Shown here piece after piece: positions 25,408 to 36,677 of a stretch of 44,446 nucleotides of DNA (its first letter is position 1; every line of letters starts with the position of its first letter). Source of the DNA: Escherichia phage vB_EcoM_SHAK7704. The stretch lies in the sequence record OR594181. One strand, given 5' to 3'. The notes beneath the pieces are model-generated. The model saw nothing but the letters and a program-made list of their open reading frames with translations. It did not search any database and was not told the origin of the DNA. The position numbers were made by a program, and so were the translations under genes.

Positions 25408-26407
25408 GCTTCGCAGCTTGTACAAAGACTCCGAGGTACTTGATGCAATCGAGCAAGCTACCGACGAGAAAGGTAATGTTAACTACAACGAGATGGCACG
25501 GGTATTATCGTGTCACCCTGTGGGTAAGAAGATTACCCGCCAGTTGGCTCGATACTGGCATGGTCAATTCAAGAAGACCAAGAAGAATGGTGATTACTAC
25601 CAGACTCTTCTGCAAGAGGATAAGCGTATCAAAGAAGAGCGTAAGCTCAGGACTCCTGACCGCTACGAGGATTTGGCTATTGTACCACTGCCTGACTCGC
25701 CTCATCGAAGTGTACTGGTAATCCCTGACACTCATGCACCTTACGAGCACCCAGATACCTTAGAGTTCCTTGCAGCAGTGGCAGCACGTTACCGTCCTGA
25801 TACGGTGGTTCATCTTGGAGATGAGGCAGACAAACATGCCTTATCGTTCCACGATTCGGACCCAAATCTGGACAGTGCTGGCATGGAATTAGAGAAGGCT
25901 CGTGTCTTCATGCACAAGTTGCACAAGATGTTTCCTGTGATGCGCCTGTGTCATTCTAATCACGGCTCTATGCACTTCCGTAAGGCAAGCGCCAAGGGTA
26001 TTCCAGTGCAATATCTTCGTACATACCGTGAAGTCTTCTTCCCAAATGGAGGTGGCGACCAGTGGGATTGGCAACATACACACGTACTTGAGTTGCCGAA
26101 TGGTGAACAGGTAGCATTCAAGCATCAACCTGCTGGCTCTGTCTTAGCAGATGCAGCGCATGAGCGTATGAACCTTGTGTGTGGTCACTTGCATGGTAAG
26201 ATGTCTGTGGAGTACGCACGTAATACACATGAACAGTATTGGGCTGTGCAGGGCGGCTGTTTGATTGATGAGTCATCTCGTGCATTTGCCTATGGTCGTG
26301 AGTCCAAATACAAGCCAGCATTAGGTTGTGTGGTTATTCTGGAGGGTGTGCCGCACATTGTCCCGATGCAGACCAATAGTGACAATCGCTGGATTGGTAA
26401 GATTTAG
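25373..26407 (+). CDS. Calcineurin-like metallophosphoesterase
   Basis: Motifs PDTH, GDEADKH, SNHG, GHLHG; start uncertain (ATG 25373, or TTG 25400 with AGGAGG 6 nt upstream; track 25367). Confidence 0.65.
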   Translation: MQERRRRLKLGKLRSLYKDSEVLDAIEQATDEKGNVNYNEMARVLSCHPVGKKITRQLARYWHGQFKKTKKNGDYYQTLLQEDKRIKEERKLRTPDRYEDLAIVPLPDSPHRSVLVIPDTHAPYEHPDTLEFLAAVAARYRPDTVVHLGDEADKHALSFHDSDPNLDSAGMELEKARVFMHKLHKMFPVMRLCHSNHGSMHFRKASAKGIPVQYLRTYREVFFPNGGGDQWDWQHTHVLELPNGEQVAFKHQPAGSVLADAAHERMNLVCGHLHGKMSVEYARNTHEQYWAVQGGCLIDESSRAFAYGRESKYKPALGCVVILEGVPHIVPMQTNSDNRWIGKI

Positions 26408-26419
26408 TTGACACTATAG
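26402..26419 (+). promoter_or_regulatory. Variant phage promoter ATTTAGTTGACACTATAG (SP6-like)
   Basis: One mismatch from the SP6 consensus; overlaps the phosphoesterase TAG stop. Confidence 0.55.
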
Positions 26420-27064: not shown

Positions 27065-28008
27065 ATATATTCCAATTCCTAGGTCTTCCAGAAGACCACC
27101 GCAATCACCCATTCATGCTGGTGAAACATCGCGGTGAAGTACCTGAGAAGAAATTAACTTTTCCATGTTATGCACAGGTAAAACGAGATGGTATATTTAG
27201 TGCTGTGGTTGTTCGCAACGATGGTGACGTTGGTATCTTTGGACGCACTGGAAAGAAACTGGCTAACACGGAAACCTTGGAAGAATCTTATTCAGCTTTC
27301 CCTACTGGCATTTATCTCGGTGAGTTGCAATCTATGGCTATTGATGTCTACCTTGAAGCACTTTCTGGAGTAGTTAACCCTAACCGCACTGAGCCACTAG
27401 ATTTCATAGGCCAGCAGATTAAAGACAACCTGTATATTGACTTCTTCGATATGTTAACTATTAAGGCATTCCATGATGGATTCACTGATGTTTCTTATCT
27501 CAAACGTTACGATGCTTTACATCGTCGCATCGGCGCTCATCTTAGCGGGTACAACGCTATCCTTCCTATTACTCCTTGCCATAATGAGCGAGAAGTTGAA
27601 GCGTTTGCGCAAGAGCAAATAGACGCAGGCCGAGAGGGTGCTGTGTTTAAACTGGACTGTGATTATGAAGCAGGCCACAAAGGTTATCGTCAGACTAAAG
27701 AAGTCCGTAAGGTAACTTATGACCTTACTTGTATTGGCTTTGAAGAAGGCAAAGGTAAGTACAAAGGTAAGGTAGCTAACCTCATTTTCAAATGGAAAGG
27801 GGGCAAGACAATCAAAGCTATGTTAGGTAAAGGGTGGACTCATGCAGATGCAGAACAGATGTTCCACGATATTAAACATGGTGGACGATTGAATGTCATT
27901 GGTAAAATCTTTGAAGTAAAAGGTCTTCAGGATTCAAGCAAGGGCAACATTCGTCTGCCCAAAGCGGGAGAATTAAGACATGACAAAGATGAACCAGATT
28001 TCTTTTGA
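27061..28008 (+). CDS. ATP-dependent DNA ligase
   Basis: 315 aa; KRDG adenylation motif (KxDG). Confidence 0.75.
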   Translation: MNIFQFLGLPEDHRNHPFMLVKHRGEVPEKKLTFPCYAQVKRDGIFSAVVVRNDGDVGIFGRTGKKLANTETLEESYSAFPTGIYLGELQSMAIDVYLEALSGVVNPNRTEPLDFIGQQIKDNLYIDFFDMLTIKAFHDGFTDVSYLKRYDALHRRIGAHLSGYNAILPITPCHNEREVEAFAQEQIDAGREGAVFKLDCDYEAGHKGYRQTKEVRKVTYDLTCIGFEEGKGKYKGKVANLIFKWKGGKTIKAMLGKGWTHADAEQMFHDIKHGGRLNVIGKIFEVKGLQDSSKGNIRLPKAGELRHDKDEPDFF

Positions 28009-28195
28009 TAGCATGAAGGCAACTCGTGCAGTTGAGGTAGCAGAAGCTATCTTTGAAACTTTATCCTGTGGCATGGAATTGCCGTATACTTTACTGGCTG
28101 ATGCAGAAGAGCTTGGTCTTTCTGTAGAAGCTATCCAAGAGAAGGTTGAAGAACTCTATGGTACAGACGAAGAAGAAACCGACGATTTCATTTGA
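27980..28195 (+). CDS. Hypothetical acidic protein
   Basis: 71 aa; overlaps the ligase 3' end. Confidence 0.45.
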   Translation: MTKMNQISFDSMKATRAVEVAEAIFETLSCGMELPYTLLADAEELGLSVEAIQEKVEELYGTDEEETDDFI

Positions 28196-28200
28196 GGGTA

Positions 28201-28328
28201 TGGAGATGCTTGAGATGATTCTCAAGCCTTCTTCTCCGAAGGTGACTAAGACTCACGAAGAATTAATCGTAGATGAAGTTAAGCGTTACATAATGGATTG
28301 TGTCAGAGCACAACTGGTGGTCCAATGA
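28201..28328 (+). CDS. Hypothetical small protein
   Basis: 42 aa from ATG 28201 after GAGGG (track ORF 28146-28328); ATGA coupling to the next gene. Confidence 0.35.
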
Positions 28329-28786
28329 TACGTCCAGCTTCATTCCTAGATATTCCTGAGATTATAAACCTTGGGAATAAGTATGTGGAAGAGGAAGTCA
28401 AGGTTGTAGCCCATCACTCAGCCTCATGGAGTGCAGAACAAAGTGCACATAACCTTTGTGCATCTCTTAGTAGAGAAGATTTATTCCTATGGGTTGCTGT
28501 AGATGAAGGGCGGATTGTAGGGTTCCTGTGGGCTGGCTATCACGAGTTGGCCCCTTGGACACCTGTAATGGTTGCCTCTGACATTCTCTTTTATATTATA
28601 CCAGAGAAGCGAGGAACCCTACTTGGTATGCGTCTCATCAAAGCCCTAAAGCAATGGGCTAGTGATAATGAATGCTCTGAGGTTCGCCTGTCTATCGCCT
28701 CTGGTATTAATGAAGAACGTGTCGGACGTATGTATAAGCGACTTGGCTTTGAACCGTTTGGCACTGTGTACAACCTGAAGTTCTAA
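28325..28786 (+). CDS. GNAT-family N-acetyltransferase
   Basis: 153 aa; acetyl-CoA motif PEKRGTLLGMRLIKAL. Confidence 0.65.
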   Translation: MIRPASFLDIPEIINLGNKYVEEEVKVVAHHSASWSAEQSAHNLCASLSREDLFLWVAVDEGRIVGFLWAGYHELAPWTPVMVASDILFYIIPEKRGTLLGMRLIKALKQWASDNECSEVRLSIASGINEERVGRMYKRLGFEPFGTVYNLKF

Positions 28787-28795
28787 GGAGATAAC

Positions 28796-29005
28796 ATGGG
28801 TGTTGTAAAGAAAGCATTTAAGGCTATCGGTCTTGCTCAAGATGCACCACGTATTGAAGCCAAAGTCCCAGCACAGCAGCTTGAGCGTAAGCCTGAGACT
28901 GAAGCTGAAGATATTCAAATTGGTGCAGGTGGTGATGATGCGACTGCATCTGCAAAAGGTAAGCGCGGCCTTGTCCGTCCGGTAGCTTCTAGCTTGAAGG
29001 TGTAA
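28796..29005 (+). CDS. Small virion-associated protein (gp6.7-like by position)
   Basis: 69 aa; AAGGAG RBS; charged with basic C-terminus; directly upstream of portal. Confidence 0.5.
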   Translation: MGVVKKAFKAIGLAQDAPRIEAKVPAQQLERKPETEAEDIQIGAGGDDATASAKGKRGLVRPVASSLKV

Positions 29006-29006
29006 T

Positions 29007-30557
29007 ATGAAACAGAGCACAGATTTGGAGTATGGAGGTAAGCGGTCTAAGATACCTAAGCTATGGGAGAAGTTCTCCACTAAACGTAGCTCTTTCCTTG
29101 ATAGGGCGAAGCATTACTCCAAATTAACCTTGCCCTATCTGATGAATGACAAAGGTGATAACGAGACTTCGCAGAATGGATGGCAAGGTGTAGGTGCTCA
29201 GGCAACTAATCATCTAGCCAACAAGCTAGCGCAAGTACTATTCCCTGCACAGCGTTCCTTCTTCCGTGTAGACTTAACTGCACAAGGTGAGAAGGTTCTT
29301 AATCAGCGTGGCCTGAAGAAGACAGAGCTAGCTACCATCTTCGCTCAAGTGGAAACACGGGCAATGAAAGAGTTAGAGCAACGTCAATTCCGGCCTGCTG
29401 TAGTGGAAGCATTCAAGCATCTTATTGTTGCTGGTAGCTGTATGCTATACAAGCCGAGCAAAGGTGCAATCAGTGCTATCCCAATGCATCACTATGTAGT
29501 TAACCGTGATACCAATGGCGACCTGTTAGACATTATCTTACTGCAAGAGAAAGCCTTACGCACCTTTGACCCAGCTACACGTGCTGTAGTAGAGGTTGGC
29601 CTGAAAGGTAAGAAGTGCAAGGAGGATGACAGCGTTAAGCTGTACACACATGCTAAGTATCTTGGTGATGGCTTTTGGGAACTCAAGCAATCTGCTGATG
29701 ATATCCCTGTGGGTAAGGTGAGTAAAATCAAATCAGAAAAGCTACCTTTCATCCCATTAACTTGGAAGCGAAGCTATGGTGAGGATTGGGGTCGCCCTCT
29801 TGCAGAGGATTACTCCGGTGATTTATTCGTTATCCAATTCTTATCTGAAGCGGTTGCCCGTGGTGCTGCGCTGATGGCAGATATCAAGTACCTGATTCGT
29901 CCGGGTGCTCAGACTGATGTTGACCACTTTGTTAACTCTGGCACTGGTGAGGTTGTCACTGGTGTAGAAGAAGACATCCATATTGTACAGTTAGGTAAGT
30001 ACGCAGACCTCACACCTATTAGCGCGGTTCTAGAGGTGTACACTCGCCGTATCGGTGTCGTATTCATGATGGAGACAATGACACGCCGTGACGCCGAACG
30101 TGTTACTGCTGTAGAAATCCAGCGAGATGCGTTAGAGATTGAGCAGAACATGGGTGGTGTATATTCCCTCTTTGCTACTACTATGCAATCGCCAGTAGCG
30201 ATGTGGGGTCTGCTGGAGGCAGGGGAGTCCTTCACTAGTGACTTAGTGGACCCTGTGATTATCACAGGTATTGAAGCTTTAGGACGCATGGCTGAGTTGG
30301 ATAAACTGGCTAACTTTGCTCAGTATATGTCACTGCCATTACAATGGCCTGAGCCTGTCCTAGCTGCTGTGAAATGGCCTGACTATATGGATTGGGTGCG
30401 TGGTCAAATCTCTGCTGAACTGCCGTTCCTTAAATCGGCTGAAGAGATGGCACAAGAACAGGAAGCACAGATGCAAGCACAGCAAGCACAGATGCTTGAA
30501 GAAGGTGTGGCTAAGGCCGTGCCGGGTGTAATTCAACAAGAACTTAAGGAGGCGTAA
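29007..30557 (+). CDS. Portal (head-tail connector) protein
   Basis: 516 aa; WQGVGAQATNHLANKLAQVLFP and RVTAVEIQRDALEIEQNMGGVYS resemble T7 gp8 segments as recalled. Confidence 0.9.
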   Translation: MKQSTDLEYGGKRSKIPKLWEKFSTKRSSFLDRAKHYSKLTLPYLMNDKGDNETSQNGWQGVGAQATNHLANKLAQVLFPAQRSFFRVDLTAQGEKVLNQRGLKKTELATIFAQVETRAMKELEQRQFRPAVVEAFKHLIVAGSCMLYKPSKGAISAIPMHHYVVNRDTNGDLLDIILLQEKALRTFDPATRAVVEVGLKGKKCKEDDSVKLYTHAKYLGDGFWELKQSADDIPVGKVSKIKSEKLPFIPLTWKRSYGEDWGRPLAEDYSGDLFVIQFLSEAVARGAALMADIKYLIRPGAQTDVDHFVNSGTGEVVTGVEEDIHIVQLGKYADLTPISAVLEVYTRRIGVVFMMETMTRRDAERVTAVEIQRDALEIEQNMGGVYSLFATTMQSPVAMWGLLEAGESFTSDLVDPVIITGIEALGRMAELDKLANFAQYMSLPLQWPEPVLAAVKWPDYMDWVRGQISAELPFLKSAEEMAQEQEAQMQAQQAQMLEEGVAKAVPGVIQQELKEA

Positions 30558-31482: not shown

Positions 31483-31500
31483 ATTTACTGGACACTATAG
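31483..31500 (+). promoter_or_regulatory. Phage RNAP promoter ATTTACTGGACACTATAG (capsid gene)
   Basis: Exact consensus; transcript begins with hairpin GGGAGA-aatg-TCTCCC. Confidence 0.75.
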
Positions 31501-32769: not shown

Positions 32770-32805
32770 GCCCTATCTACCTTGCGTAGGTAGGGTTCTT
32801 TTGTT
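32770..32805 (+). terminator. Intrinsic terminator after the capsid gene
   Basis: CCCTATCTACC-ttgcg-TAGGTAGGG stem then TTCTTTTGTT; homologous to the terminator at 23747. Confidence 0.7.
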
Positions 32806-32815
32806 AGGAGGATTC

Positions 32816-33553
32816 ATGCCTGTAATTAGACAAACCAGTAAAGTAGGACATATGATGGAAGATGTGGCCTTCCAGATTATTGATAGTAAGCTGGAAGCGG
32901 TAAACTTGTGTATGCGAGCTATTGGTCGTGAGGGTGTGGATTCTCTCGACTCAGGTGACTTGGACGCAGAAGATGCAAGCAAGATGATCGACATCGTATC
33001 CCAGCGATTCCAGTACAACAAAGGAGGTGGCTGGTGGTTCAATCGTGAACCAAACTGGCAGATTGCACCTGATACCAATGGTGAAGTCAATCTACCTAAC
33101 AACTGCCTAGCAGTATTGCAGTGTTATGCTTTGGGTGAGAAGAAAGTACCCATGACTATGCGAGCAGGTAAGCTCTACTCTACTTGGAGTCACACCTTTG
33201 ATATGCGTAAGCATGTTAATGCTAATGGTATGATTCGTCTTACCTTACTCACCTTACTGCCCTACGAGCATTTACCTACAAGTGTAATGCAGGCTATTGC
33301 CTATCAAGCTGCTGTAGAGTTTATTGTGTCTAAGGATGCAGATCAGACTAAGCTAGCCACTGCGCAGCAGATAGCCACTCAGCTTCTTATGGATGTACAA
33401 TCTGAGCAAATGTCACAGAAGCGATTAAACATGCTGGTACATAACCCCACTCAGCGTCAGTTTGGTATCATGGCTGGTGGCTCTCAGAATGTACCTGCTT
33501 ACTCTCATTCACCTTATGAGAGTTGGGCGCTCCGTCCGTGGGAGGATCGTTAA
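32816..33553 (+). CDS. Tail tubular protein A (T7 gp11-like)
   Basis: ATG 32816 after AGGAGG; pattern shared with T7 gp11 as recalled. Confidence 0.8.
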   Translation: MPVIRQTSKVGHMMEDVAFQIIDSKLEAVNLCMRAIGREGVDSLDSGDLDAEDASKMIDIVSQRFQYNKGGGWWFNREPNWQIAPDTNGEVNLPNNCLAVLQCYALGEKKVPMTMRAGKLYSTWSHTFDMRKHVNANGMIRLTLLTLLPYEHLPTSVMQAIAYQAAVEFIVSKDADQTKLATAQQIATQLLMDVQSEQMSQKRLNMLVHNPTQRQFGIMAGGSQNVPAYSHSPYESWALRPWEDR

Positions 33554-35955
33554 TGGAAGTACAAGGTTCATTAGGTAGACAAATCCAAGGGATTAGCCAG
33601 CAGCCGCCAGCGGTACGCTTGGATGGTCAGTGCACAGCTATGGTTAATATGATACCTGATGTAGTGAATGGTACTCAATCACGCATGGGTACAACTCATA
33701 TTGCAAAGATACTTGATGCGGGGACTGATGACATGGCTACTCATCATTATCGCAGAGGTGATGGTGATGAAGAGTATTTCTTCACGTTGAAGAAAGGACA
33801 AGTTCCTGAGATATTTGATAAGTATGGGCGCAAATGTAATGTGACTTCACAAGATGCACCTATGACCTACCTCTCTGAGGTTGTTAATCCAAGGGAAGAT
33901 GTACAATTCATGACGATAGCTGATGTTACTTTCATGCTTAATCGTAGGAAAGTAGTTAAAGCTAATAACAGGAAGTCACCTAAAGTTGGAAACAAAGCCA
34001 TTGTGTTTTGTGCGTATGGTCAATATGGTACATCTTATTCCATTGTAATTAATGGGACCAACGCTGCTAGTTTTAAAACACCGGATGGTGGAAGTGCAGA
34101 CCATGTTGAACAAATTCGAACTGAACGTATCACTTCTGAATTGTACTCTAAGTTGCAGCAATGGAGCGGTGTGAGTGACTATGAAATACAAAGAGACGGT
34201 ACTAGTATATTTATCGAGAGACGGGATGGTGCTAGCTTTACAATAACAACCACCGATGGTGCAAAAGGTAAGGACTTAGTGGCTATCAAGAATAAAGTTA
34301 GCTCTACTGACCTACTCCCTTCTCGTGCGCCTGCTGGTTATAAAGTACAAGTGTGGCCTACTGGCAGCAAACCTGAGTCTCGTTACTGGCTGCAAGCTGA
34401 GCCTAAAGAGGGGAACCTTGTGTCTTGGAAAGAAACAATAGCTGCTGATGTATTACTTGGGTTTGATAAAGGCACAATGCCTTACATCATTGAACGTACA
34501 GGTATCATTGACGGCGTAGCTCAATTCAAGATAAGACAAGGTGATTGGGAAGATCGTAAAGTAGGGGACGACTTGACTAACCCTATGCCCTCTTTTATTG
34601 ATGAGGAAGTACCCCAGACAATAGGTGGGATGTTCATGGTGCAGAACCGCCTATGCTTTACAGCAGGTGAAGCGGTTATTGCTTCTCGTACATCATACTT
34701 CTTCGATTTCTTTCGTTATACGGTTATCTCTGCATTGGCAACTGACCCATTTGATATTTTCTCAGATGCTAGTGAAGTCTACCAGCTAAAACATGCAGTG
34801 ACCTTAGATGGCGCTACCGTGTTGTTCTCTGATAAGTCACAATTCATACTGCCAGGCGATAAGCCTTTAGAGAAGTCAAATGCACTGCTTAAGCCTGTTA
34901 CAACATTTGAAGTGAACAATAAAGTGAAGCCAGTAGTAACTGGTGAATCGGTAATGTTTGCCACTAACGATGGTGCTTACTCTGGTGTCCGAGAGTTCTA
35001 TACAGACTCTTATAGTGACACTAAGAAGGCACAAGCAATCACAAGTCATGTGAATAAGCTTATCGAAGGTAACATTATCAACATGGCAGCAAGTACCAAT
35101 GTCAACCGATTGCTTGTCACTGCTGATAAGTATCGTAACATAATTTATTGCTATGATTGGTTATGGCAAGGTACAGACCGTGTACAATCAGCATGGCATG
35201 TATGGGAGTGGCCTATGGGTACAAAGGTGCGAGGTATGTTTTATTCTGGTGAATTACTTTATCTACTCCTTGAGCGAGGCGATGGCGTCTATCTGGAGAA
35301 GATGGACATGGGTGATGCACTAACCTATGGTTTGAATGACCGCATCAGAATGGATAGGCAAGCAGAGTTAATCTTCAAGCATTTTAAAGCAGAAGATGAA
35401 TGGATATCTGAACCACTTCCTTGGACTCCTACTAACCCAGAACTTTTGGATTGCATCTTAATAGAAGGGTGGGATTCATATATTGGAGGTTCTTTCCTGT
35501 TCAAATATAACCCTAGTGATAACACCTTGTCTACAACCTTTGACATGCATGATGATAACCACGTAAAAGCGAAGGTTATTGTTGGTCAGATTTACCCTCA
35601 AGAGTTTGAACCAACACCTGTAGTTATCAGAGATAGGCAAGACCGTGTATCCTATATTGATGTACCTGTTGTGGGGTTGGTTCACCTTAATCTTGATATG
35701 TATCCTGATTTCTCCGTGGAAGTTAAGAATGTGAAGAGTGGTAAAGTACGCAGGGTGCTAGCGTCAAACCGTATAGGTGGCGCTCTCAACAACACAGTAG
35801 GTTATGTTGAACCAAGGGAGGGTGTCTTCAGATTCCCACTGAGGGCTAAGAGCACGGATGCTGTTTATCGTATTATTGTAGAATCACCTCATACATTCCA
35901 GCTTCGCGATATTGAGTGGGAAGGGAGCTACAATCCAACCAAAAGGAGGGTCTAA
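33553..35955 (+). CDS. Tail tubular protein B (T7 gp12-like)
   Basis: 800 aa from ATG 33553 (GGAGG RBS); position and size. Confidence 0.8.
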   Translation: MEVQGSLGRQIQGISQQPPAVRLDGQCTAMVNMIPDVVNGTQSRMGTTHIAKILDAGTDDMATHHYRRGDGDEEYFFTLKKGQVPEIFDKYGRKCNVTSQDAPMTYLSEVVNPREDVQFMTIADVTFMLNRRKVVKANNRKSPKVGNKAIVFCAYGQYGTSYSIVINGTNAASFKTPDGGSADHVEQIRTERITSELYSKLQQWSGVSDYEIQRDGTSIFIERRDGASFTITTTDGAKGKDLVAIKNKVSSTDLLPSRAPAGYKVQVWPTGSKPESRYWLQAEPKEGNLVSWKETIAADVLLGFDKGTMPYIIERTGIIDGVAQFKIRQGDWEDRKVGDDLTNPMPSFIDEEVPQTIGGMFMVQNRLCFTAGEAVIASRTSYFFDFFRYTVISALATDPFDIFSDASEVYQLKHAVTLDGATVLFSDKSQFILPGDKPLEKSNALLKPVTTFEVNNKVKPVVTGESVMFATNDGAYSGVREFYTDSYSDTKKAQAITSHVNKLIEGNIINMAASTNVNRLLVTADKYRNIIYCYDWLWQGTDRVQSAWHVWEWPMGTKVRGMFYSGELLYLLLERGDGVYLEKMDMGDALTYGLNDRIRMDRQAELIFKHFKAEDEWISEPLPWTPTNPELLDCILIEGWDSYIGGSFLFKYNPSDNTLSTTFDMHDDNHVKAKVIVGQIYPQEFEPTPVVIRDRQDRVSYIDVPVVGLVHLNLDMYPDFSVEVKNVKSGKVRRVLASNRIGGALNNTVGYVEPREGVFRFPLRAKSTDAVYRIIVESPHTFQLRDIEWEGSYNPTKRRV

Positions 35956-36677
35956 TGGCTATAGGTTCAGCCGTTATGGCTGGTATGTCTTCTATTGGTA
36001 GCATGTTTGCAGGCAGTGGTGCAGCAGCCGCTGCTGGAGGTGCTGCCGCAGGTGGCGGAGGTTTGCTAGGTTCACTAGGTGGATTCCTAAGTGGCTCTAC
36101 TGCTGGTTTCTCTAATGCCGGCCTTCTTGGTGCTGGCCTTCAAGGGTTAGGCTTGATTGGTGATCTATTTGGTGGAAGTGATGAAGCCAAGGCGATGAAG
36201 AAAGCACAAGAAGAGCAATGGCGGCAGCAGCTTATTGCTACACAAGAGGCGTACAAGACAGTGGCAGACGCAGAACGTTCTGCTGCTAAACAATATCATG
36301 CAGATGCAATCAGTAATCAGGCTTCACTGCTACAGCAGCGAGCACAGGTTGCATTACTTGCTGGGGCTACTGGTACTGGTGGTAATTCTGTGTCCTCTAT
36401 GCTTAACGACTTAGCAGCAGATGGCGGCAGGAACCAGAGTACTATCATTGATAACTATGAGAATCAGAAGATTAATTTCACCAACCAGCTTAAGTCTATC
36501 CAACGTGGTGGTCAGATGCAGATGCGTGAGTTTAAGAAGCCTTCTGCTATGAATACCTTGGTTAAAGGTATTCCAAGTCTGGCATCTGCCTATGTAACTG
36601 GTAGTAAGTCTGGCAAGGCATTGGGTAAAGCCTTAACTGATTCTCGCACATATTCATCTGGAACAAGAGGTATTTAA
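35955..36677 (+). CDS. Internal virion protein (Gly/Ala-rich)
   Basis: ATG 35955 after AAAGGAGG; Gly/Ala-rich N-terminus. Confidence 0.65.
   Translation: MAIGSAVMAGMSSIGSMFAGSGAAAAAGGAAAGGGGLLGSLGGFLSGSTAGFSNAGLLGAGLQGLGLIGDLFGGSDEAKAMKKAQEEQWRQQLIATQEAYKTVADAERSAAKQYHADAISNQASLLQQRAQVALLAGATGTGGNSVSSMLNDLAADGGRNQSTIIDNYENQKINFTNQLKSIQRGGQMQMREFKKPSAMNTLVKGIPSLASAYVTGSKSGKALGKALTDSRTYSSGTRGI

Follow-up and report, generated by a model that had tools for sequence, protein, structure and literature searches.

The window analysed here, a stretch of 44,446 nucleotides from Escherichia phage vB_EcoM_SHAK7704 (sequence record OR594181), is the circularly permuted genome of a K1E-like Vectrevirus, and its first position falls inside the large terminase gene. 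We studied a gene encoding a small GNAT acetyltransferase which precedes the first structural genes. Within the region 27900-29100 nucleotide identity reaches 99.9% to Escherichia phage K1E (KY435490) and 96.9% to K1-5. As such the gene is nothing unusual and has been annotated before: it is K1-5 gene 27 ('acetyltransferase', YP_654128), K1E gp27 and SP6 gene 27, and is called gene 27 in the following, while the SP6 numbering of Dobbins lists it as gp28 (PMC4837284). In GenBank many relatives, including K1-5, ULINTec and KMB14, carry it under the labels acetyltransferase, N-acetyltransferase or GNAT. The features discussed below are collected in Table 1.

The open reading frame (ORF) assigned to gene 27 in a preliminary description, which was made from the sequence alone, has the correct boundaries. 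It extends from the ATG at 28325-28327 to the TAA at 28784-28786 and encodes 153 amino acids (17.4 kDa, isoelectric point (pI) 5.8). A mechanical ORF list places the start at a TTG at position 28298; this start was rejected, as the homologues begin at the methionine of the sequence MIRP. Since 31 of the 35 sequences in our alignment A1 start at the Met encoded by ATG 28325, this codon is taken as the real start. A minus-strand ORF of 144 amino acids (28646-29080) overlaps the 3′ end of the gene and was likewise dismissed as a product of mechanical ORF calling: strong divergence at synonymous sites and a ratio of nonsynonymous to synonymous substitution rates (dN/dS) of about 0.1 argue for the plus frame as the coding one. 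In comparison with seven relatives, dN/dS amounts to 0.05-0.12 wherever dS could be estimated (Nei-Gojobori method), which argues for a functional gene under strong purifying selection and not for a chance ORF.

Table 1 Positions of gene 27 and of associated features in the window
Feature	Position	Strand	Basis
SP6-type promoter for the phage RNA polymerase, heading the unit with gene 27	26402-26419	+	Match to ATTTAGGTGACACTATAG with 1 mismatch
Gene 26, small upstream ORF (56 amino acids from ATG 28158)	28158-28328	+	phrog_6507, 3.5e-27
Shine-Dalgarno-like GGTGG inside gene 26, 4 nt before the ATG of gene 27	28316-28320	+	Read from sequence
Gene 27 of K1E/K1-5, coding sequence of the predicted GNAT-fold acetyltransferase	28325-28786	+	Pfam, phrog_1249, AlphaFold2, dN/dS, identity to K1E
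End of β4 and pyrophosphate-binding loop (motif A), I92-P-E-K-R96-G97-T-L-L-G101	28598-28627	+	Alignment to PDB loops
Shine-Dalgarno sequence AAGGAG of the next gene, overlapping the TAA of gene 27, 5 nt before ATG 28796	28785-28790	+	Read from sequence
Basic protein of 69 amino acids (pI 9.5), homologue of T7 gp7.3	28796-29005	+	phrog_1320, 1.9e-11
Portal (head-tail connector, 516 amino acids), first large structural gene	29007-30557	+	K1-5 label 'head-tail adaptor'
Internal virion protein (IVP), IVP-B-like, directly after tubular tail protein B (33523-35955)	35916-36677	+	phrog_805, 1.1e-52

Family assignment, predicted fold and cofactor site

The gene 27 product exceeds the gathering thresholds of three Pfam models (PF00583, PF13508 and PF13673), with 36.8 vs. 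20.7 bits for Acetyltransf_1 (PF00583), 36.3 vs. 27 bits for Acetyltransf_7 and 25.3 vs. 23.6 bits for Acetyltransf_10. It also matches phrog_1249 ('acetyltransferase') over its full length (E 1.3e-52, 179 bits, residues 1-151 against profile positions 9-155). An AlphaFold2 model calculated with 35 homologues as input is confident (predicted local distance difference test 90.8, predicted template modelling (TM) score 0.86). It comprises strands at residues 2-4, 53-60, 63-76, 79-91, 119-123, 143-145 and 148-152 and helices at 7-28, 37-49, 99-114 and 130-139, an order which fits the GNAT fold β1-α1-α2-β2-β3-β4-α3-β5-α4-β6(-β7). A Foldseek search of the PDB returned 814 matches at E ≤1e-3, and all 50 of those listed are acetyltransferase-type entries. 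The highest TM-scores were obtained for ArsN (0.81) and BAR (0.80), with Naa60, DpA and SSAT also ranking high, at identities of 14-23%. Among the closest viral models in BFVD are the GNAT of Roseobacter phage CRP-4 (TM 0.86) and a protein of VpV262. By sequence and predicted fold the gene 27 product is thus classified as a GNAT-family acetyltransferase, and the claim of the preliminary description to this effect was borne out by profile search and structure prediction alike.

The preliminary description had further spoken of a clear acetyl-CoA binding motif. The motif is recognisable, and its loop aligns with R-G-G-G-I-G of PDB entry 4j3g and RGQGIG of 2bei, but it is not canonical: compared with the consensus Q/R-x-x-G-x-G/A, the loop R96-G97-T98-L99-L100-G101 retains the Arg and the last Gly, while the central Gly is replaced by Leu. 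Among 141 distant family members R96 is kept in 98% and G97 in 88%. Other positions conserved in these homologues are D86 on β4, Y137 on α4 (71%), R3, D9, E23 and W111, and the motif B positions G141 and G146 are conserved across very distant members as well. D86 and Y137 are predicted to lie at the positions usually occupied by catalytic residues; Y137 is exchanged for Phe in some close homologues. From these sequence features the gene 27 product is probably a small, single-domain and catalytically active GNAT N-acyltransferase.

Assignment to a curated subfamily failed. The best NCBIfam scores were 27.7 bits against a cut-off of 124, 26.5 against 170 (ArsN1a), 24.6 against 140 (AAC(6′) group E), 21.9 against 86.4 (RimI) and 20.6 against 163, and all AAC(6′) models gave 12-25 bits with cut-offs of 140-320. 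With every score 4-20 times under its cut-off, assignments to AAC(6′), ArsN, RimI or MshD were rejected. A sequence search of the PDB yielded weak, generic GNAT matches (best E 2e-4) and no informative subfamily. Modification of antibiotics, which had been offered as one possible activity, is disfavoured by the distance of the AAC(6′) models from their cut-offs and appears unlikely.

Gene order, translation and transcription around gene 27

The preliminary description had placed the gene just upstream of the structural genes and had regarded it as translationally coupled to the preceding small ORF. Both statements hold. The small ORF is most likely gene 26, whose TGA (28326-28328) is overlapped by the ATG of gene 27 in the sequence ATGA (28325-28328). 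The annotation of gene 26 in K1-5 agrees in both length and overlap. Comparable overlaps of start and stop codon exist in relatives, namely 4 nt in K1-5, phi-A318, uligo and Henninger and 1 nt in LUZ19. The GGTG element within the Shine-Dalgarno-like sequence is kept in K1-5, SP6-like and Klebsiella-phage loci. In the search against phrog_6507 a 42-amino-acid test fragment of the gene 26 product covered positions 15-57 of the 57 profile positions. A terminator scan flagged an 8-bp hairpin (GCTTGAGATGATTCTCAAGC followed by CTTCTTCTCC) inside gene 26 at 28208-28227 on the plus strand; without a proper T-run it is probably not a terminator.

Downstream, gene 27 is followed by the gene for the small basic protein and then by the portal gene. 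T7 gp7.3 itself belongs to phrog_1320 (9.7e-30), so the 69-amino-acid protein shares its family, and its C-terminus, KGKRGL...SSLKV, is similar to that of the T7 type. T7 gp7.3 resides in the tail channel as a small basic protein and is ejected at infection (PMC11784390). In a comparison of the 69-amino-acid protein with the products of genes downstream of the GNAT in seven further loci (L001, L077, L080, L081, L083, L084, L085), many of the gp7.3-like proteins begin with Met-Gly and a Lys-rich stretch (MGKKIKK..., MGVVKKAFKAIG...), and those with this start have a conserved ...G(L/I)N(I/V) end. The proteins in the gp7.3 position of Colwellvirinae (phi-A318, uligo) begin with MASS or MSSK instead. 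According to tblastn the portal gene lies 220-250 bp downstream of the GNAT gene in all 29 IMG/VR loci with a GNAT identity of at least 60%, and the order small ORF, GNAT, gp7.3-like protein, portal is found in 29 of 29 of these close loci. In Colwellvirinae phages (34-37% identity) the arrangement recurs, the place of gp7.3 being taken by a small ORF. With the T7 order of genes 6.5, 6.7, 7, 7.3, [7.7] and 8 for comparison, gene 27 is placed by its neighbours in the slot of T7 gene 7.

The window contains 12 matches to an SP6-type promoter, where 0.05 would be expected by chance. Ten of them, with the core GACACTATAG, are on the plus strand at 1898, 4246, 10325, 14370, 16898, 17746, 21319, 23234, 26402 and 31483. 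After the promoter at 26402 the next one follows at 31483, and a terminator-like hairpin is found at 32770-32796 behind the capsid gene. From this arrangement it follows that gene 27 is predicted to be co-transcribed by the phage RNA polymerase with the genes for the ligase, two small ORFs, the 69-amino-acid protein, the portal and the scaffold.

Homologues of gene 27 were detected by tblastn in 241 phage records. In every record inspected, from SP6-like phages to the Colwellvirinae Vibrio phage phi-A318 and Pseudomonas phage uligo, the GNAT gene stands just before the portal gene. The hosts of phages with the conserved gene include Salmonella, Klebsiella, Proteus, Erwinia, Vibrio and Pseudomonas. 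A scan of one bacterial or archaeal genome per species with two family peptide patterns gave no cellular relative, a result limited by those patterns. About 8 of 150 listed database representatives are much longer (277-385 amino acids), and four of these match in two separate stretches. In the IMG/VR podovirus contigs L056 and L059 the GNAT-homologous segment lies within an ORF of 401 amino acids, which may represent a GNAT fused to another domain.

Virion-gene context of the family and candidate functions

The wider family is associated with virion genes. A hidden Markov model (HMM) built from the SP6-like clade alone gave 63 bits for gp41 of Roseobacter phage CRP-5 and 60 bits for the GNAT of Pseudoalteromonas phage Y3, both members of phrog_1249; proteins of the Rac family, named after Rac of phage LUZ19, scored at most 10.6 bits and LUZ19 Rac itself −0.1 bits. 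CRP-5 gp41 is flanked by a structural protein of 704 amino acids and by internal virion proteins, and the GNAT gene of cobaviruses has been equated with T7 gene 13 (PMC6775973). IMG/VR contigs show further virion-gene surroundings: the GNAT gene lies after a tubular-tail-B-like gene (phrog_376) and before a muralytic 'head protein' in L032, L050 and L058, directly behind the portal gene in L037, before the major head protein gene in L034 and behind a 'DNA ejection protein' gene in L042.

Hardies et al. report acetyltransferase matches for T7 IVP-A (gp13) and for the gene in the equivalent position of phiRIO-1-like phages, and they state that IVP-A is required for morphogenesis and not retained in the virion (PMC4819975). 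An AlphaFold2 model of a homologue 97% identical to T7 gp13 (P0195, alignment A2; L090:3308-3724) has the GNAT fold with a predicted local distance difference test of 91.9. Its top matches in the PDB, RimI and Ard1, are protein N-terminal acetyltransferases, and the sequence RLSGKA of the gp13 family fits the CoA motif Q/R-x-x-G-x-G/A. In the window no gene occupies the slot of T7 gene 13 (IVP-A) between tubular tail protein B and IVP-B (junction 35916-35955), and the gp13-family HMM matched none of the window ORFs. Three GNAT HMMs matched a single window ORF (28283-28783), which is gene 27. The only GNAT of K1E, a phage without a gp13 homologue, could therefore fill the role of gp13. Mass spectrometry of phiPsa17 virions detected gp6.7, gp7.3, gp8 and gp14-16 and neither the gene-7-slot protein nor gp13 (PMC4517105).

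On the basis of family membership, the repeated genomic association and the precedent of T7 gp13, we tentatively favour the view that gene 27 encodes a late, non-structural protein acetyltransferase which acts in virion maturation. We infer its enzymatic activity, a protein rather than a small molecule as substrate, the non-structural status and a role in particle infectivity. Gene 27 would then be the SP6-group representative of a podovirus 'morphogenesis-module' GNAT, and its product would belong to the same functional class as the non-structural IVP-A (T7 gp13), which is needed for infectious particles. The phage RNA polymerase would transcribe the gene together with the last genes of DNA metabolism and the first structural genes, and its translation would be linked upstream to the small ORF and downstream to the gp7.3-like ejected tail protein. 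With the help of acetyl-CoA, lysine residues or the N-terminus of at least one virion or ejection protein of the phage would be modified as particles assemble; candidate substrates are the internal virion proteins and the basic gp7.3-like protein encoded next to gene 27. The activities listed in the preliminary description, modification of host translation or transcription components or of antibiotics, did not include a role in virion assembly, yet the sequence family points there.

Several observations weigh against a function in maturation. Gene 27 of K1E is located outside the IVP-A slot, and location among late genes is weak evidence, since late genes make up about half of a 44-kb podovirus genome. 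The HMMs of the K1E family gave T7 gp13 −1.8 bits or no score, and in comparisons of the two families hhalign returned probabilities of 0.5-19%. A sequence link between gene 27 and T7 gp13 could thus not be detected by HMM or hhalign, leaving the arguments from fold and slot. T7 gp13 itself may not need acetyl-CoA. In addition, LUZ19 Rac, the one experimentally characterised GNAT in exactly the slot of gene 27, acts on a host target and not on a virion protein (PMC7552054). A full-text literature search, whose results did not include the 2004 genome papers of SP6 and K1-5, returned no published experiment on gene 27 of K1E, K1-5 or SP6 or on any member of phrog_1249.

Rac also provides the model for another explanation, namely that the gene 27 product acetylates one or more host proteins in mid-infection and thereby shuts down or redirects functions of the host after takeover by the phage RNA polymerase. 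We regard this as possible but doubtful; it does not exclude a function in virion maturation. The slot in LUZ19 is identical, with a small ORF (gp27), the GNAT gp28 (Rac), a small virion protein (gp29), portal, scaffold and capsid, and the layout recurs in the Krylovirinae Axy23, phiB1_1 and MR8, in the Waewaevirus LIMEzero and in the T7-like Ghunavirus/Warsawvirus phages Henninger, Lepni01 and phTUNSv. In the unannotated gh-1, a GNAT similar to that of Henninger was located by local tblastn just before the portal. A wide alignment of the K1E family matched a Rac-family alignment in hhalign with a probability of 95.9% (E 5.8e-9, 127 columns), the Rac-family HMM gives the K1E protein 25 bits, and Rac-family members match phrog_1249 weakly (2e-6 to 9e-3). 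This Rac alignment has 9 members assembled from GenBank phage records, a database search with Rac having given one protein, and similarity common to GNATs in general may account for much of the profile-profile signal. BLASTP of the K1E GNAT against Rac gave nothing significant (E=19), the SP6-clade HMM scores of Rac and its family are those given above, and the K1E protein does not match phrog_3986, the Rac family, at E ≤0.01. Orthology with Rac was rejected, as BLASTP and single-sequence hhalign were both negative and just remote similarity at family level is left. Rac itself triggers proteolytic cleavage of the linker in the alpha subunit of Pseudomonas aeruginosa RNA polymerase, which removes the alpha C-terminal domain; this depends on an intact acetyl-CoA pocket, and lysine acetylation rises throughout the cell when Rac is expressed (PMC7552054). 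Cleavage of alpha is not caused by the homologue which LKA1 has in this slot (PMC7552054), and Rac is without effect in P. putida (PMC11794488), the Rac phenotype being limited to P. aeruginosa and, within the Krylovirinae, to the genus Phikmvvirus. For these reasons a conserved role of the slot in cleaving alpha is unlikely. As to the modification of host transcription suggested in the preliminary description, there is thus one precedent in the same slot, and it is a remote relative.

An N-acetyltransferase for small molecules, acting on a metabolite or toxin (for instance a polyamine, an aminoglycoside or an amino-acid analogue like phosphinothricin or arsinothricin) and in this way aiding replication or DNA packaging, is improbable in our judgement. 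The best sequence matches in the PDB include the diamine acetyltransferases SSAT1/2 (2bei, 2.6e-4) and phosphinothricin acetyltransferases, the highest TM-scores belong to ArsN and BAR with the polyamine enzyme DpA in the top ranks, the best NCBIfam matches include ArsN1a and AAC(6′) group E, and one relative is labelled 'diamine N-acetyltransferase'. Polyamines are counter-ions of packaged DNA, and a link to the packaging stage is conceivable. Nevertheless, all NCBIfam scores remain far under their cut-offs, the identities to the PDB entries are as low as stated above, and protein N-terminal acetyltransferases rank equally high in Foldseek, among them Naa60 and a Brucella enzyme deposited as ribosomal-protein-alanine N-acetyltransferase. 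The steady embedding of the gene among podovirus structural genes has no obvious reason for a metabolite enzyme, and the pattern-limited scan of bacteria and archaea gave no cellular source for a metabolic one. Very improbable is, in addition, a non-catalytic assembly chaperone with GNAT fold that would serve as a scaffold binding virion proteins or CoA without acyl transfer. Such a protein would be in line with the non-canonical motif A (L99 for the central Gly), with Phe in place of Y137 in some close homologues, with T7 gp7, which occupies the same slot, retains no more than a weak similarity to Rac-family GNATs and appears degenerate, and with T7 gp13, known just as a morphogenesis factor (PMC4819975). 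On the other hand, R96, G97, D86, Y137 (71%) and the motif B residues G141 and G146 are kept in very distant members; a working cofactor site and not merely a maintained fold is therefore to be expected. Capsule O-acetyltransferases belong to folds other than GNAT. O-acetylation of the K1 capsule (polysialic acid) was likewise considered and rejected, because the gene is conserved in phages of many other hosts and GNATs are N-acyltransferases.

The idea of virion maturation can be extended to the late-region podovirus GNATs as a group. All of them, namely phrog_1249 with K1E gp27, the Rac family and possibly also gp7 and gp13 of T7, would descend from one virion-maturation acyltransferase or be functionally equivalent to it, and this enzyme would modify small basic ejected proteins (gp7.3-like, gp6.7-like or internal virion proteins), as a requirement for infectivity. 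This extension is hardly probable; if true, it would mean that phages post-translationally modify their own ejection apparatus, loosely like the acylated entry peptides of eukaryotic viruses. Met-Gly-(Lys/Val)-Lys forms the N-terminus of many gp7.3-like neighbours of the GNATs; specific acylation of the N-terminal glycine is nevertheless a long shot, because the Colwellvirinae proteins lack the Met-Gly start.

Beyond the single gene, the wider question concerns the role of small late-region GNAT-fold proteins in T7-, SP6- and phiKMV-like phages and marine podoviruses. T7 gp13 has been known for decades just as "required for morphogenesis". K1E, K1-5 and SP6 have a single such gene, are easy to manipulate and offer a clean system for distinguishing virion proteins, host proteins or both as targets and for asking about the need for acetyl-CoA chemistry in infectivity. 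K1-specific phages are candidates for therapy, and in safety screens a "resistance-like acetyltransferase" is sometimes flagged on account of this gene. The evidence from sequence comparison argues against an antibiotic-resistance function. Because the relatives always sit among virus-particle genes, the family context points to the building of infectious particles rather than to resistance.

Comparison with related phage proteins

The genes of K1E, K1-5 and SP6 are the same gene. The protein in the window is 94.8-99.3% identical to those of two K1E records and about 76% identical to that of SP6, the neighbours are alike, the length of 153 amino acids is common apart from a duplication in K1-5, and nothing substantive differs. 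The published K1-5 copy (L001:6426-6953) has 175 amino acids owing to a 22-amino-acid tandem duplication, HHSASWNAEQSA-ITFVHLLIET-HHSASWNAEQSA, in the α1-α2 loop. This duplication is missing from the window, K1E and SP6, and may be a natural variant or an artefact of sequencing or assembly.

Two slot equivalents stand at a greater distance. LUZ19 Rac (gp28, phrog_3986, 157 amino acids) resembles the K1E protein in slot, size, GNAT assignment and related family profiles, but the two show no pairwise similarity, and phrog_3986 does not include the K1E protein. T7 gp7 ('host range', phrog_2746, L085:1631-2032) has the same position as the GNAT gene relative to gp6.7, gp7.3 and the portal. We compared it with L077, L079-L084 and the window segment of gene 27. 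All seven Rac-family proteins scanned match phrog_2746 (up to 3e-8), LUZ19 Rac itself does not, and the alignment of gp7 to the Rac-family HMM (11.8 bits) is in register. The K1E-family HMM, in contrast, gives gp7 just 1.7 bits, which is no detection, and none of the Pfam-type GNAT signatures tried matched gp7. Judged from these alignments, the pre-portal GNAT may have a degenerate relative in T7 gp7.

T7 gp13 (PF11090, phrog_308, 138 amino acids) shares with the K1E protein the small size, the predicted GNAT fold and the location in the late structural region of an Autographiviridae genome; the two differ in slot and belong to different PHROG and Pfam families. Closer are the GNATs in the IVP-A slot of cobaviruses, Zobellviridae and phiRIO-1-like phages (CRP-5 gp41, SIO1 pc40 and the N-acetyltransferase-domain protein of VpV262). 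They belong to the same family as gene 27 of K1E (phrog_1249, 60-63 bits with the SP6-clade HMM over the full length), agree with its product in size and predicted fold (TM up to 0.86 in BFVD), and their genes lie among virion genes, as that of K1E does. Identity to the K1E protein is just 23-26%, and these genes have tubular tail protein B on one side and the internal virion proteins on the other (PMC6775973; PMC4819975), whereas the K1E gene precedes those of the gp7.3-like protein and the portal.

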